A stretch of DNA of 38,108 bases from a virus: UHGV virus genome UHGV-2124252; one strand, written 5' to 3'. The position numbers and the translations under genes are program-made. The stretch's first letter is position 1, and each line of letters starts with the position of its first letter. The notes beneath the pieces are model-generated. The model ran no database searches, was not told the origin of the DNA, and saw nothing but the letters and a program-made list of their open reading frames with translations. This document shows positions 25,594-37,196 of the stretch, piece by piece.

Positions 25594-25944
25594 TTAAAGC
25601 CCCATCGCAACAGCCAGACAGACCGCTGCAACAATCAGTGCACGGCGGATTAACGCAGCAGAAAACACCAGGTGAAGGCCGGTCTGTACCGGGAAACGCC
25701 CATCAGCCATCAGCCTGTCGTCATGTTTCAGGTACTGACCGGGACGGGCTTTGGGGAAGAGCGAACGGTCAAGCCAGTAACCCAGCACTGCTGCCAGCGT
25801 GATGAGTGCCAGCTTGTAGATCACAACAGGCAACTGCTGTGGCGAGACCAGAGCGATGGTGCCCAGCAACAGCACTGAGGTCAGCAGCCAGCCGCTGAGG
25901 CGAGGTTTTTTAACAGGGGGAATGAATTTTTTCAGGTTTTTCAT
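25594..25944 (-). CDS. Holin-like membrane protein (3 predicted TM helices)
   Basis: 116 aa from ATG 25944 with AAGGAG RBS; first gene of late operon, directly upstream of endolysin. Confidence 0.5.
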   Translation of the reverse strand: MKNLKKFIPPVKKPRLSGWLLTSVLLLGTIALVSPQQLPVVIYKLALITLAAVLGYWLDRSLFPKARPGQYLKHDDRLMADGRFPVQTGLHLVFSAALIRRALIVAAVCLAVAMGL

Positions 25945-26074
25945 GTGTGTCTCCTTGTCTGGTGGAGACAGCATCACAAATACAGGGCGCGAAGGATTTT
26001 AAAGCGCGTTAAGAGAGCCGGGGATACGGGATGTGCAGGATAAACGATGAATTATTCACAGAGGAGAATACGAT

Positions 26075-26818
26075 ATGACGCAGACACTGAATCCGGTCAT
26101 CACTGTCACCGTGTCCGGTCCTGTGGGCAGCGGTAAAAGTTACATATTGGCGCGGATAGAGGAAGTGGTGAAACAGGAATTCGGGGGCAGCGTCATTGTC
26201 GATGCTGCAGACGTAGATGATGAGCGGCGTATGAGTGGCGATGATCTGACGACCTGGCAGAAGCCACGGGGTGGCACAGTGATCAGGCTGGAGGAATACA
26301 CGGGACAGGGCCTGTTGTCATACGGCGAGGAGCGTATCTGTCGGACGAATGAGCTGCTGGATGTTATATGCCCCACGGGCCGGCAACCCTGGATACTGCC
26401 CGATGCACTGCATGCCACCATTGCGGCACTGATGACAGTTTACGATCAGGAGCTGCTCATGAAGGAGCTACGTAAACTCACCGGTCAGCCAACAGAATGT
26501 TTTTCTGCCCCGAAGTACGGGAAACAGGAACACATCCCGGTGAACACGCTCCCCGTTAACCAGCCTCCCCGGTTCTTCGACGAATACATTCTGACACCGG
26601 AAAATAAAGCTGAGCACGAAGAGATCAAAGCGGCGTTGTTCCGGGAAATCAGGAAGATTGCTGAAATGCAACTGGGGGGCGGGCTGGACAGAGTGATGGC
26701 GAGAGGAGAATGGGAGTCGCTGTTTGAAAGAGTTTCCCCGGAATTACTTCCCCTCGCACTGGCTATCGGGATTATGCAGACAGCGGATAAACCTCACTTA
26801 CGTTCATTAAACACGTAA
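26075..26818 (+). CDS. P-loop NTPase-domain protein, function unknown
   Basis: 247 aa, GAGGAG RBS, Walker A GPVGSGKS near N-terminus; divergent from late operon. Confidence 0.65.
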   Translation: MTQTLNPVITVTVSGPVGSGKSYILARIEEVVKQEFGGSVIVDAADVDDERRMSGDDLTTWQKPRGGTVIRLEEYTGQGLLSYGEERICRTNELLDVICPTGRQPWILPDALHATIAALMTVYDQELLMKELRKLTGQPTECFSAPKYGKQEHIPVNTLPVNQPPRFFDEYILTPENKAEHEEIKAALFREIRKIAEMQLGGGLDRVMARGEWESLFERVSPELLPLALAIGIMQTADKPHLRSLNT

Positions 26819-27198
26819 CGCATAATCCGGGATACGCATTCAGCGATGACTGCATTTTCACCGGTTTTTACTGCATCCAGAAGTGACTCTTTAAATGGTG
26901 CGGGCCGGGGCTGCAGAAGGGTCGGCGTGGCATTGAGCAGACGGAGCGTTTTTTCCGTGAGGACGACATCAGCCGCTCCCACAGCCAGCAACTGAGAGTA
27001 ACGAATATAGCTGTTATCCCGAAGCCATATCAGCGTATCAATAAAATACCGGCACTTTTTCTGGTCGTGATCAACCTGGTCCGGGATATCGAAAAAACCA
27101 GAATAAATCAAAACCTGAGGTGCCGGATGCGTGTTCAGTAATCGGCAGAATATTTTGCCGGTGAGTGCATAAAAATCATCATTTAAGGAGTGCATCAT
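26794..27198 (-). CDS. Hypothetical protein
   Basis: 134 aa, only long ORF in an AT-richer stretch; GGGGA RBS. Confidence 0.5.
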   Translation of the reverse strand: MMHSLNDDFYALTGKIFCRLLNTHPAPQVLIYSGFFDIPDQVDHDQKKCRYFIDTLIWLRDNSYIRYSQLLAVGAADVVLTEKTLRLLNATPTLLQPRPAPFKESLLDAVKTGENAVIAECVSRIMRYVFNERK

Positions 27199-27412
27199 GA
27201 ATCCCCGATTAACGTTAACAGAACATCAGCGCCGTGCTGAAGCAGTGAACAATGTTCTGGAAGATATTATCCGGTTACATCGCGGAGAACTGAGTGTCTG
27301 TCGTGCCGCTTTTCATTTTCAGGGAATACAAAAGCAGTTTGATACTTCTGTTTTTGCAGAAGGTATTACTTATGCCCTGGACCGGATAAGGTCAGAAAAT
27401 CGCCCCGGATAA
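27197..27412 (+). CDS. Hypothetical small protein
   Basis: 71 aa, strong AAGGAG RBS 6 nt upstream of ATG. Confidence 0.5.
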   Translation: MNPRLTLTEHQRRAEAVNNVLEDIIRLHRGELSVCRAAFHFQGIQKQFDTSVFAEGITYALDRIRSENRPG

Positions 27413-27467
27413 TCCCTAAACCACATTAACAGAAATCCCACTATCCCTGCCGCATCATGAAAGAACG

Positions 27468-27498
27468 ACCAGCCCGGTGCTTCGGACCCACCGGGCTG
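27468..27498. other. GC-rich stem-loop (11-bp perfect stem, 9-nt loop)
   Basis: ccagcccggtg / caccgggctgg; U-rich tract follows on minus strand only. Confidence 0.5.
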
Positions 27499-27603
27499 GC
27501 CATCGTCCCACAGAAGTGGCTGTGAGCCGACCGAGGTTCAGTCAGTCTCGCGAGACCAGACTAGCCTGCCATATTTTTAATAATTGTAAAAGGCTTACAG
27601 ATT

Positions 27604-28368
27604 ATGAAAATGAAGACATTACCCATCGTTCCATGGATTGGTGGCAAACGTCGCCTGGCAAAACACATCCTGCCGCTGTTTCCGGCGCATGAATGTTATG
27701 TGGAGCCGTTTTGTGGGGCAGCAGCGCTCTATTTTCTTAAGACACCCGGCAAGATCGAAGTCATCAATGATATCAACGGTGAACTGGTGAATCTGTACCG
27801 GGTGGTAAAGCATCACCTGGAAGAATTTGTCCGCCAGTTCAAATGGGCGCTGGTCAGCCGTCAGATCTACAAATGGCTGCAGATCACCCCGGAAGAAACA
27901 CTGACGGATATCCAGCGTGCGGCACGGTTCTACTACCTTCAGAAGCAGGCGTTTGGCGGCAAGGTGGCAGAGCACAGCTTCGGTACCTCCACCACATCCC
28001 CGCCACGCTTCAACCTGCTGCGTATTGAAGAAGAACTGTCAGCAGCACACCTGCGGCTTTCCAGAACAGTCATAGAACACATGGACTGGCAACAGTGCAT
28101 TGAGCGTTATGATCGTCCGCACACACTGTTCTACTGCGACCCACCGTACCTGGGTACGGAAGGCTATGGTGTGGATTTTCCTGAAGGGAACTACTCGCGG
28201 CTGGCAGAGCTGGCCCGGTGCATCAGAGGAAAAATGATAATTTCGGTGAACGATATCCCACAGATGCGCGAGGTGTTCACTGGACTGAACATACAGACAG
28301 TGAACATCAACTACAGTCTGGCGGGGAAATCCACGCCGCGCCGTGAACTGGTAATCTGCAACTTCTGA
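27604..28368 (+). CDS. DNA N6-adenine methyltransferase (Dam-like, D12 class)
   Basis: N-terminal AdoMet-binding FCGAAALYF and catalytic DPPY motif. Confidence 0.9.
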   Translation: MKMKTLPIVPWIGGKRRLAKHILPLFPAHECYVEPFCGAAALYFLKTPGKIEVINDINGELVNLYRVVKHHLEEFVRQFKWALVSRQIYKWLQITPEETLTDIQRAARFYYLQKQAFGGKVAEHSFGTSTTSPPRFNLLRIEEELSAAHLRLSRTVIEHMDWQQCIERYDRPHTLFYCDPPYLGTEGYGVDFPEGNYSRLAELARCIRGKMIISVNDIPQMREVFTGLNIQTVNINYSLAGKSTPRRELVICNF

Positions 28369-28369
28369 A

Positions 28370-28400
28370 ACAAAACCGGAAAGCACAATGCTTTCCGGTA
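28370..28400. terminator. Rho-independent terminator between convergent dam-like and repressor genes
   Basis: ccggaaagc acaat gctttccgg; on minus strand followed by TTTTGTTT. Confidence 0.6.
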
Positions 28401-28484
28401 AACCAAACAACTTCCACTATGTCACTGGCGATGTTTTCTGAAAGCATCCAGATCAACCACCTGTCCTTTGTGTCCAGGTCAAAA

Positions 28485-28823
28485 TCAGCCTGCGAGTTTG
28501 CTTGGTTTGGGGTGAATGAAGACTTTGCCGACCTCAAGAATTGCCCTCCGTTGTTCGGGGCTCATTTCGTCGAATGCATCCATTAACTCTTTCTTTTCTT
28601 GTGACACATAAGGTGCAACAACAGGCTGACTCCGCACCCCAGTAACTACATACAAAATATCTACACCGATTTCTGATAGTGCAGATAACTGCACTGCAGT
28701 AGGAGAAGTGCGATCTTTTTCCCAATCAATGAAAGTTCTCTTTGCCACACCTATAGCATCAGCCAACCCTTGCTGTGTAAGAGATAGACGCTCTCTTTCT
28801 TCTTTAATACGTAACCCGATCAT
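28485..28823 (-). CDS. Phage repressor, XRE-family HTH
   Basis: MIGLRIKEERERLSLTQQGLADAIGVAKRTFIDWEKDRTSP... HTH near N-terminus; divergent from early operon; start assigned to ATG 28823 (longer ORF to 28976 would overlap early promoter/RBS). Confidence 0.7.
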   Translation of the reverse strand: MIGLRIKEERERLSLTQQGLADAIGVAKRTFIDWEKDRTSPTAVQLSALSEIGVDILYVVTGVRSQPVVAPYVSQEKKELMDAFDEMSPEQRRAILEVGKVFIHPKPSKLAG

Positions 28824-28847
28824 GTGAGTTTTTCTGCACTCTTTAAG

Positions 28848-28876
28848 TTGACTGGTGAGGTAATCTGCACCATAAT
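28848..28876 (+). promoter_or_regulatory. Candidate early promoter (sigma70-like)
   Basis: TTGACT (28848-28853), 17-bp spacer, CATAAT (28871-28876) upstream of Cro/Ner-like gene; flanked by repeated TCTGCAC motifs. Confidence 0.5.
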
Positions 28877-28923
28877 CTATCACACATAAGGCAAACATCA
28901 TTGCATCAACAAAGGAGACAACG

Positions 28924-29112
28924 ATGACTGCAGAACAAGTCAAAGCTCTCTTCCGCCAGCGCGGGATCACTTTCACCCGCTGGGCAGAAGAAAACGGCTA
29001 CAACCGCAATGAGGTATACCGCGTTCTCAATGGGCAGACCAAAGCCCGTTACGGTAAATCCCATGAAATCGCCGTGAAGTTGGGGCTGAAATCAACAGCT
29101 CAGGCAGCCTGA
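28924..29112 (+). CDS. Small Cro/Ner-like DNA-binding regulator (first early gene)
   Basis: 62 aa, AAAGGAG RBS, basic helix-turn-helix-like core; divergent from repressor. Confidence 0.65.
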   Translation: MTAEQVKALFRQRGITFTRWAEENGYNRNEVYRVLNGQTKARYGKSHEIAVKLGLKSTAQAA

Positions 29113-36376: not shown

Positions 36377-36826
36377 ATGCAGAAAAAACGCCTGATACAG
36401 CTTATCCATATTGCCCGTAATGAACTGGGTATGGATGAAGACACCTACCGCCAGATGTTACAGGGGCTGACCGGTAAAGCCTCAACCAAAGGAATGGATA
36501 CCACACAACTAAACTGCGTGCTGGAATCCATGAAAAAGAAAGGCTTTCGCGTTAAACCAGCCAGAAAAGCCAGCTCCGGTTTACCGCTTGATAACCATCC
36601 GCAGTCCAGGAAAATTCGTGCGCTATGGCTTGAAATGGCTGCTGCCGGCATTGTTCGTGACCGTTCAGAAAATGCATTAGCGAGGTGGATCAAGCGGGAA
36701 ACGGGCATCATTGCCCTGCGCTGGCTCAGTACTGAACAGGCAAGCAGTGTTATTGAGAAACTGAAGAAGTGGCAGCGCAGAGCTGCGGGAGTCAAACATG
36801 AGCGACCTGAATCAGTTTCGAAGTAA
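36377..36826 (+). CDS. GemA-like regulatory protein (Mu gp16 family)
   Basis: MQKKRLIQLIHIARNELGMDEDTYRQML... typical N-terminus of Mu gp16/GemA family. Confidence 0.7.
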   Translation: MQKKRLIQLIHIARNELGMDEDTYRQMLQGLTGKASTKGMDTTQLNCVLESMKKKGFRVKPARKASSGLPLDNHPQSRKIRALWLEMAAAGIVRDRSENALARWIKRETGIIALRWLSTEQASSVIEKLKKWQRRAAGVKHERPESVSK

Positions 36827-37196
36827 GGGGCCGGAACTCCTGGTGGAACTGGCACAGCATACCTCTGAGACCGTTCGCGAGATTATTGATATTGAGCCCG
36901 AAGTTGCCGACCAGATTGGTCAGGCCGTCGCGAACCGAATGATGCAGGTCTGGGGCGGGCAAAACGTTTATTTTCCTATGGGCATGGTATGGAAGGTCAG
37001 TCAGCGCGACCGGGAAATCTTCAGGGAGTTTAACGGACGCAACCACCACGAACTGGCCCGCAAGTTTGGTGTTTCGCTTCAGTGGGTCTACAGCGTGGTT
37101 AAGCGGGTCAGAAAAGAAGAACTGGATCGGATGCAGGGCAGGTTGTTTGATGAAGATCTGCCAGAGGAGACGAAAGACGTTAACAAATCCAGATAA
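36798..37196 (+). CDS. mor: Mor/C-family transcription activator
   Basis: ...GGQNVYFPMG...REIFREFNGRNHHELARKFGVSLQWVYSVVKRVRK matches Mor family C-terminal HTH. Confidence 0.8.
   Translation: MSDLNQFRSKGPELLVELAQHTSETVREIIDIEPEVADQIGQAVANRMMQVWGGQNVYFPMGMVWKVSQRDREIFREFNGRNHHELARKFGVSLQWVYSVVKRVRKEELDRMQGRLFDEDLPEETKDVNKSR

Follow-up and report, generated by a model that had tools for sequence, protein, structure and literature searches.

The window analyzed here, the 38,108-nucleotide (nt) virus genome UHGV-2124252, is a BcepMu-like transposable prophage, and the matching Escherichia phage PhiKM is classified in Bcepmuvirus. Its minus-strand late genes, including the SLT endolysin gene, reach as far as the holin gene (25594-25977, minus strand; Pfam Holin_2-3, E = 1.5e-41). 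Next on the right come, one after another, gene A (26075-26818, plus strand, 247 amino acids [aa]; phrog_3787, E = 3.8e-164), gene B (26794-27198, minus strand, 134 aa; phrog_2266, E = 6.1e-44), gene C (27197-27412, plus strand, 71 aa; phrog_4490, E = 1.6e-52), a plus-strand Dam methyltransferase gene, a helix-turn-helix (HTH) repressor gene (28485-28976, minus strand), a Ner-like gp16 homologue, and the early operon. A sequence-only reading of the window had singled out A, B and C as an accessory locus of a Mu-like prophage. The phage is indeed transposable, but it is more exactly BcepMu-like (Bcepmuvirus). The coordinates given for the three open reading frames (ORFs) agree exactly with the ORF listing, A is divergent from the holin gene as had been stated, and the RefSeq annotation, which covers A, B and C, together with purifying selection marks them as real genes. 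As set out below, this is a composite accessory region: it contains a mobile cassette of B and a small helical partner, placed back to back with their ATG codons overlapping in the tetranucleotide CATG.

The junction lies at 27196-27199, where the start codon of B (27198-27196, minus strand) and that of C (27197-27199, plus strand) share 2 nt, just as had been read from the letters, giving an intergenic distance of minus 2 nt. The Shine-Dalgarno sequence AAGGAG of C (27185-27190, plus strand) is 6 nt before its ATG and within B codons 3 to 5, while a Shine-Dalgarno-like GGGGA for B (27202-27206, minus strand) is 3 nt before the first ATG of B, 6 nt before the second, and within C codons 2 to 4. 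B starts with ATGATG, and use of the second ATG would abolish the overlap in this copy, yet the CATG junction recurs in distant relatives. Every lineage that we examined has a Shine-Dalgarno-like motif before both starts, located in the first codons of the other gene. At its 3′ end B overlaps A convergently, another feature already described, by 25 nt (26794-26818), and on the strand opposite to A and C it occupies the whole stretch that separates them.

This arrangement is found well beyond the window. Scanning of viral contigs found 60 B-family loci, 55 of which were analyzed, and in 52 of these 55 an ATG-initiated divergent ORF of 63 to 83 aa shares a CATG with the start of B. A one-genome-per-species scan gave 26 B-family loci (Pseudomonas, Pectobacterium, Kushneria, Vibrio, Aeromonas, Uliginosibacterium, Desulfobacteraceae and Bilophila); an intact overlapping partner with the CATG junction is present in 12 of them, from Pseudomonas, Pectobacterium and Bilophila. 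The genome scan with the Escherichia coli/Serratia subfamily of B found nothing. The carriers include BcepMu-like, P2-like and lambda-like prophages, and the cassette lineages share only ~30% identity (the B of the window is 53% identical to its Serratia relative and ~30% identical to those of P2-like phages). B homologues belong to phrog_2266 in every lineage, and the partners vary, falling into PHROGs 4490, 2454 and 25421, all of unknown function.

The cassette was seen in five distinct genomic settings. In a Serratia BcepMu-like prophage the order is holin, 89-aa ORF, B homologue (convergent and overlapping), divergent 73-aa homologue of C in the equivalent position, and Dam. Two Serratia loci (L006 and L007) have identical 89-aa/B/C/Dam blocks beside different repressors (116 aa versus 163 aa plus 132 aa), so the cassette appears to assort independently of immunity type. 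In the P2-like phages Midge, FSL SP-004 and Klebsiella ST147-VIM1phi7.1, a B homologue is paired with a divergent ORF of 63 to 64 aa through a 2-nt start overlap. There the cassette occupies the portal-proximal edge of the GpA-GpQ region, with B antisense between the cargo (or the phage's own gene A) and the partner, and its neighbors are a reverse transcriptase (RT)-like gene with an HTH gene, Fic, a metallo-beta-lactamase-like gene, a DinI/Tum-like gene, or nothing. At L026 (4541-5789) and 10 similar P2-like loci, a 316-aa gene directly downstream of the B homologue is overlapped by a 106-aa HTH gene; the 316-aa gene is annotated "polymerase" in ST147-VIM1phi7.1, and by appearance the pair resembles a defense-type reverse transcriptase pair. 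In Pseudomonas lambda-like prophages B is antisense, with the large terminase gene on one side and the partner, gpW and portal genes on the other, and in one lambdoid contig the cassette sits beside a cI-like repressor.

As judged from these sequences, B and its small partner are a conserved mobile cassette that is shared across prophage types and bacterial orders. In the recurring design, the partner belongs to an operon on one strand and B occupies the gap just ahead of it on the other; in the window, the equivalent unit would be A-C-Dam. The three genes had been put forward together as one candidate module, and on this point the comparison disagrees: they are not a three-gene module around a P-loop enzyme, and the unit that is conserved is B plus the small partner, which is widespread without the P-loop protein.

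B-family genes also occur without a partner, next to terminase genes (L072) and within a tail cluster (L074). In some lambda-like prophages of Pseudomonas and Gammaproteobacteria (L127, L128 and L130), the partner is absent and a gpW-like head-tail joining gene abuts B; in L130 (2990-3010) the gpW-like gene starts 2 nt from the start of B (CATGATG). A solo B-family paralogue of 126 aa, ~25 to 30% identical to B and without a divergent partner, is present in the E. coli prophages L010 (6393-6773, minus strand) and L011, where it is inserted at the 5′ end of Dam, with the first ~19 Dam codons duplicated on either side (L010, 6333-6980).

The link between A and this cassette is found in the C-terminal part of A. 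Residues ~188 to 235 (LFREIRKIAEMQLGGGLDRVMARGEWESLFERVSPELLPLALAIGIMQ; 26636-26779, plus strand) form a partner-like domain, and an hhalign comparison of its family with the 83-aa divergent partners of Pseudomonas-type B genes gave a probability of 95.7% (E = 1e-8, 48 columns). The 83-aa partners carry the motif QLTGRMDWVRAR.YW...LADAL, and the same pattern is present in A residues 188 to 235, in the Serratia 89-aa ORF, where the domain stands alone, and at the C termini of several A-family proteins. By this profile match the domain belongs to the canonical partner family of B genes, and it is the only tie between A and B. The C family aligned with the canonical partner family in the same register at a probability of 23.6% (E = 8.6e-4) and with the A C-terminal domain family at 0.4% (E = 0.14), which is no more than suggestive of homology between C and the canonical partners. 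The domain of A is thus canonical in sequence but is placed at the 3′ end of B and fused to a mini P-loop, whereas C is canonical in position and divergent in sequence. Because the C terminus of A matches the partner family and C holds the canonical position, B in the window is apparently flanked by two partner-type genes.

Between deeper lineages, dN/dS is 0.04 to 0.19 for B and, where dS is measurable, 0.06 to 0.15 for the small partner, and these values point firmly to purifying selection on both. The partner evolves faster, with a pN of ~0.27 versus ~0.12 for B. Among E. coli variants dN/dS is 0.22 to 0.24 for A and 0.24 to 0.70 for C. When B (26794-27198) was compared with the copies in L082, L085, L086 and L088, it showed 5 to 6 nonsynonymous and 0 to 2 synonymous changes, and values for the neighboring A and Dam are 0.04 to 0.24. 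A deletion derivative is also informative about the extent of the unit. In the 158-aa variant of A from E. coli M9682-C1 (L003, 5176-5652), A codon ~152 is fused, in another frame, to the final nucleotides of C by way of short stretches of similarity (CAGGAA...CCCGG; 26520-26545 and 27385-27412 in the window). The sequence of this variant shows the C terminus of A, B and C to have been lost together, evidently as one block.

Several of these properties would suit a toxin-antitoxin-like addiction or abortive-infection pair in which B is toxic, possibly through a C-terminal hydrophobic, glycine-rich helix, and the partner is a labile antidote. The sizes fit (~135 to 145 aa with 63 to 83 aa), the partner is the faster evolving of the two, the cassette moves between elements, many B-family members end in LGxGxxL-type hydrophobic tails, and two partner-type domains flank B in the window. 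We nevertheless consider such a pair unlikely: the genes are divergent and do not form an operon, no toxin or antitoxin family in Pfam or PADLOC matches them, the hydrophobic tail is degenerate in the B of the window, and solo B genes are common, which would be unexpected for a toxin left unneutralized. A type II toxin-antitoxin module in the strict sense was rejected on the divergent genes, the overlapping starts, and the lack of toxin and antitoxin domains in Pfam and PADLOC.

The slot between holin and repressor is a variable one. The region is 100% identical in E. coli SK1144 and in two other strain chromosomes and 95.5% identical in Escherichia phage PhiKM (PQ738613, Bcepmuvirus), which is the sole match to A in a tblastn search of cultured phages. 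In the PhiKM record (L001; 3218-3597 and 3913-4767), the B gene is unannotated. The region was matched in 636 of 5,426 complete E. coli genomes, 478 of which carry at least 80% of the query. Other E. coli prophages of the same type have in this slot a truncated 158-aa A with other downstream genes, a DUF2441 protein, or no extra gene, and otherwise intact prophages that are close relatives lack the B-C cassette; these alternative contents bear out the description of the locus as accessory. In BcepMu, intervening genes also separate the holin gene (gp21) from the repressor gene (gp17), and in KS10 both genes between repressor and holin are annotated as hypothetical (PMC2628397). The stretch had further been called AT richer than its flanks. 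GC values over 26001-27500 are 0.54, 0.53 and 0.46, a modest dip relative to the lysis genes (0.61 to 0.62); the early region spans 0.45 to 0.58. An Rfam scan of 25800-28600 gave subthreshold chance matches only.

By its distribution the region qualifies as a moron: it is present or absent in collinear relatives, it is inserted between conserved operons, and a deletion variant exists. It resembles hotspot cargo such as that of the P2 GpA-GpQ region (old, tin and defense systems) in its presence or absence among close relatives at a fixed variable slot, its orientation against the flanking operons, its somewhat lower GC, and the occurrence of a homologous cassette in the GpA-GpQ hotspot itself. 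It differs in that it has no enzymatic domain and no match in PADLOC-DB v2.0.0, which covers systems described up to 2023: A gave only mad8 (E = 0.0046) and SngB (E = 0.028), and B and C gave no matches. Back-to-back genes with shared start codons have not been described for such cargo. The statement that none of the three proteins matches a recognizable family stood up as well, with nothing above threshold in sequence searches of Pfam, NCBIfam, PADLOC and the Protein Data Bank (PDB). Clear homology to a housekeeping phage function, which had been named as the finding that would count against the proposal, was looked for and not found. We found no papers on the RefSeq accessions or PHROG identifiers of the locus, nor on overlapping start codons in phages, and the reading of the locus as accessory and undescribed holds, given the variable slot and PHROG families that are all of unknown function. 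The head-to-head pair is a good candidate for a phage-conflict or regulatory module.

Family alignments give B a winged-helix-like signature, WL..N.YI.Y ... V.LTEK.L.LLN, followed by a C-terminal helix. B shares with YjcQ/DUF2513-type winged-helix proteins a hydrophobic helix, GY[IL], a hairpin, and LT.KG/L..L, and differs from them in its C-terminal helix and in an additional helix at the N terminus that carries a conserved FP.P motif; the UniRef label of the Serratia B homologue is DUF2513. Seven B-family members had no Pfam family above threshold and no DUF2513 or winged HTH (wHTH) model even at E values up to 10, and neither the single B sequence nor the family profile matched anything significantly in the PDB. 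The weak PDB profile matches to B residues 53 to 96 were the N-terminal domain of riboflavin kinase, YjcQ, AspA and an archaeal wHTH (E = 0.6 to 1), and an AlphaFold2 model built on a 5-sequence alignment had a mean pLDDT of 43.9. We take B to be a winged-helix-like protein on weak but coherent grounds. Two other identities were tried. B is not the Mor/C late activator, as it has no Pfam match and the phage encodes a Mor-family activator instead at 36798-37196, in the early operon with Gam and GemA (Pfam Mor, PF08765, E = 1.1e-43). The annotation in phage Midge suggested a relative of T7 gp5.5/gp5.7, for which hhalign returned probabilities of 0.1% and 0.2%, a weak test with single-sequence templates.

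The winged-helix-like motif invites the proposal that B and C are a self-contained transcriptional switch, a repressor with a Cro-like or antirepressor partner, which would set the expression of nearby cargo (A, Dam, or the changing genes of the P2 hotspot) or tune prophage induction and would not act on other phages. A divergent layout forces promoters to be face to face or overlapping, as in the known phage switches P2 C/Cox, 186 CI/Apl and P22 mnt/arc. The position of the P2-like cassettes at the portal-proximal hotspot edge beside changing cargo (RT-like plus HTH, Fic, metallo-beta-lactamase fold), the cI-like neighbor in one lambdoid contig, and the naming of the Midge B homologue as a putative transcriptional regulator by its annotators also agree with a regulatory role. 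The likeness to P2 C/Cox, 186 CI/Apl and P22 immI mnt/arc-ant extends to two small divergent genes, interfering transcription, and one partner that resembles a small DNA-binding protein, here by motif only. Those switches, however, have an intergenic control region with operators, whereas the cassette offers no intergenic DNA for operators (its distance is minus 2 nt, and the ribosome-binding sites lie within each other's codons), and their proteins have no sequence similarity to A, B or C in Pfam or PHROG. The partners contain no significant HTH (C matches Pfam HTH_psq at E = 0.084), and the cassette also occurs without obvious cargo, as in Midge, and inside head and tail operons. It is absent from intact close relatives and is therefore not needed for the phage's own regulation, for which the Mor activator and the repressor are encoded elsewhere. 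On balance, we find a purely local switch somewhat doubtful.

The N terminus of A has the Walker A sequence GPVGSGKS at residues 15 to 22, exactly as first reported. A is a mosaic of an N-terminal mini P-loop, middle modules, and the C-terminal partner-like domain. An exhaustive HMMER search of 1.84 billion representatives returned 55 A-related proteins at E values up to 1e-3, and apart from close E. coli relatives and A fragments they have only residues 1 to 76 (26075-26302, plus strand) in common. This domain comprises a strand, GxxGxGK[ST], a helix, a strand, a loop with a conserved E..W..P, and a strand; it heads proteins of 74 to 364 aa whose C-terminal modules are unrelated and have no Pfam match, and it exists by itself in proteins of 78 to 86 aa. 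Among 21 diverse members, G20 and K21 are invariant, and G15, G18, S22, I28, G37, E50, W61 and P64 are nearly so; a few members read GKN or are missing the first glycine. The VIVD of A (residues 40 to 43) is invariant among close E. coli relatives only and is replaced elsewhere by IQIES, IEVVC and others. The hhhhD following helix 1 is not conserved in the family, and strand 3 often, though not always, ends in an acidic residue. A relatives measure 247, 182, 158 or 141 aa, the shorter ones being without the middle or the C-terminal part and the 182-aa form missing residues 53 to 124. Other BcepMu-like prophages have an A-like gene in the same holin-adjacent place. The Walker A domain appears to have been joined to other modules by recombination. 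It is also present in unrelated viral contigs, some of them of 116 to 258 kb, and is probably not specific to BcepMu-like prophages.

On these data we also weighed a proposal in line with the sequence-only reading, in which A is a genuine P-loop NTPase, B and C are its accessory subunits, and A supplies the enzymatic core of the three genes. The nearly invariant Walker A, the frequent acidic residue at the end of strand 3, and the tight packing of the three genes are what it would predict. A canonical P-loop NTPase core has at least five strands and scores above threshold with a hidden Markov model, whereas this domain has ~75 residues with three strands and one helix. All Pfam P-loop matches are subthreshold and cover only strand, P-loop and helix: the best for A is AAA_30 at 17.1 bits (cutoff, 27), ten other A-family members matched below threshold in their first 30 to 60 residues, and ABC_tran scores of ~17 to 18 bits (cutoff, 25) cover the Walker A region alone. 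NCBIfam matches reach 12 to 15 bits, against cutoffs of 266 to 875. The stand-alone 78- to 86-aa proteins, the unconserved hhhhD, the GKN and glycine-less members, the 182-aa variant, and the wide occurrence of B-C without any P-loop protein likewise make a three-gene NTPase system very unlikely. The RefSeq name "ABC transporter ATPase" for truncated A variants was ruled out by the absence of an ABC_tran domain above the cutoff.

PDB profile matches of the mini P-loop family were confined to the strand/P-loop/helix element and included the engineered "phosphate-loop protein" 6c2u (E = 1.1e-4) and the de novo ATPase 9jix (E = 4.2e-4). With these and with natural P-loop NTPases the strand, GxxGxGK[ST] and helix of A align; unlike the latter, the domain of A ends after ~75 residues and two more strands, with no conserved Walker B and no further canonical strands. 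An AlphaFold2 model of A from a 14-sequence alignment had a mean pLDDT of 44.4. The resemblance is confined to the motif and does not amount to membership. As the family as a whole lacks a Walker B and the domain falls short of the canonical fold in size, we treat it as P-loop-like and stop short of calling it an NTPase.

Downstream of C, the Dam-type N6-adenine methyltransferase gene (27604-28368, plus strand; Pfam MethyltransfD12, E = 5.9e-29; PADLOC MTase_II, E = 5.9e-113) adjoins B-C in E. coli and Serratia but is not beside the cassette in P2-like and lambda-like phages. It is a co-oriented neighbor outside the mobile cassette and is possibly in one transcription unit with A and C. In the PhiKM record Dam begins ~30 codons earlier than the RefSeq Dam of E. 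coli prophages, and the Dam start is uncertain. The spacer between C and Dam (27411-27499; repeat families D1 and D6, inverted repeat I5) holds a degenerate second B/C junction: a 24-nt repeat of C codons 2 to 9 (27411-27434, 75% identity) and an exact GCATCATGAA copy of the junction (27452-27461). A perfect 11-bp hairpin follows at 27469-27499 (CCAGCCCGGTG/CACCGGGCTGG), with a terminator-like score on the minus strand. The repeat and the hairpin may be the footprint of cassette insertion or duplication, or may halt transcription after C and ahead of Dam. The prediction places no terminator between A, C and Dam, and a strong, bidirectional-looking hairpin follows Dam.

Orphan Dam methylases of phages commonly protect DNA, and the co-orientation of A, C and Dam without a predicted terminator before the hairpin after Dam could accordingly be read as an antirestriction or DNA-protection operon, with B as an antisense-encoded regulator; the function would then be counterdefense and not defense. 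Related BcepMu-like prophages (L098) have an A-like gene with Dam directly after it and no B-C, as that reading would have it, but A-like genes also occur without Dam (L096), P2-like and lambda-like phages carry the cassette with no Dam beside it, and Pfam and PDB sequence searches showed no similarity to known antirestriction proteins. We judge it distinctly unlikely. A type II restriction-modification system with C as the controller was also considered and rejected: A and B have no nuclease domain, C has no significant HTH, and B-C occurs without a methyltransferase in P2-like and lambda-like phages.

The reading that we favor, tentatively, is that B is expressed alternately with its partners, is neutralized by them, and serves in phage-phage conflict. 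It draws on the accessory status of the region, the conservation of the cassette and of its CATG junction, the selection on both genes, the Shine-Dalgarno-like motifs before both starts, the partner homology of the C terminus of A, the block loss, the antisense embedding of B in other prophages, the hotspot position in P2-like phages, and the weak winged-helix matches of B. A, C and Dam may form one transcription unit, since they are co-oriented with no predicted terminator between them, and, with no DNA left between the two starts, each gene of the pair would need a promoter located within its partner or past it. Polymerases on the two strands would then run into each other, and the 5′ portions of the two RNAs would be complementary, so that B and the partner would be expressed mostly in alternation. 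B would be made from the quiescent prophage and would act through its winged-helix-like domain on DNA or on the development of another phage. When the opposite strand is transcribed, which in lambda-like Pseudomonas prophages is that of the late head operon, C and the C-terminal domain of A, as the small partners, would bind B and either neutralize or redirect it. The A mini P-loop would serve as an interchangeable accessory, supplying the B-partner complex with an element that binds phosphate or nucleotides. The likeliest role would be exclusion or abortive infection with self-protection. A bolder version is that the cassette is an operator-free, self-regulating conflict switch between an "armed" (B) and a "disarmed" (partner) state, in which reading of either strand would physically exclude reading of the other, and that the 75-residue domain of A is a natural free-standing minimal P-loop that binds phosphate ligands apart from the canonical NTPase fold; in our view this is doubtful.

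A number of observations weigh against the alternating-conflict reading. Neither A, B nor C matches a PADLOC defense model. A scan for consensus promoters turned up no credible candidate for A, B or C, and its total number of matches equaled the expectation from shuffled sequence. The winged-helix assignment of B depends on a motif and on nonsignificant matches, the models of A and B have a pLDDT of ~44, and the similarity of C to the canonical partners is weak. About half of the B-family genes in bacterial genomes are partner-less, and the solo paralogue exists in E. coli, so B can probably function, or at least persist, alone. Within E. coli the dN/dS of B is ~1 or higher, on 6 to 8 changes only; so small a number does not tell diversifying selection apart from relaxed constraint, and the latter could account for the value. 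On the favorable side, the GpA-GpQ region is described as the main defense hotspot of P2-like phages, and 6 of 8 loci of unknown function that were tested, all in P4 satellites, were protective (PMC13586616); residence of the cassette in this hotspot is, however, circumstantial.

Should a conflict or switch function be true, the cassette would add an enzyme-free module of two small proteins to prophage hotspot cargo, and its shared start codons and mutual antisense would be an unusually compact form of wiring. The cassette is common (the 478 complete E. coli genomes above, P2-like prophages of Klebsiella and Salmonella, and many Pseudomonas prophages) and therefore probably accounts for some of the "unknown" content of established defense hotspots. 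If it is only a local regulator, what these results chiefly offer is improved annotation for three PHROG families. Separately, the mini P-loop family may represent a natural counterpart to engineered P-loop prototypes, which makes it interesting for the study of protein evolution.

A-family proteins P0051 to P0077 carry short shuffled modules behind the same mini P-loop, in varying order and combination and without Pfam matches, examples being DRPVPVHIQ.LMSKLGISFEEYQETDLQPVVDLVNWAL, YGF.D..GH, and PW.LPDA.HA.IAAL..YDQ.L. The mini P-loop also heads proteins of 87 to 294 aa in large, apparently unrelated phage genomes (L107 to L115, on contigs of 15 to 258 kb), where these genes lie near repeated, structural-looking genes.

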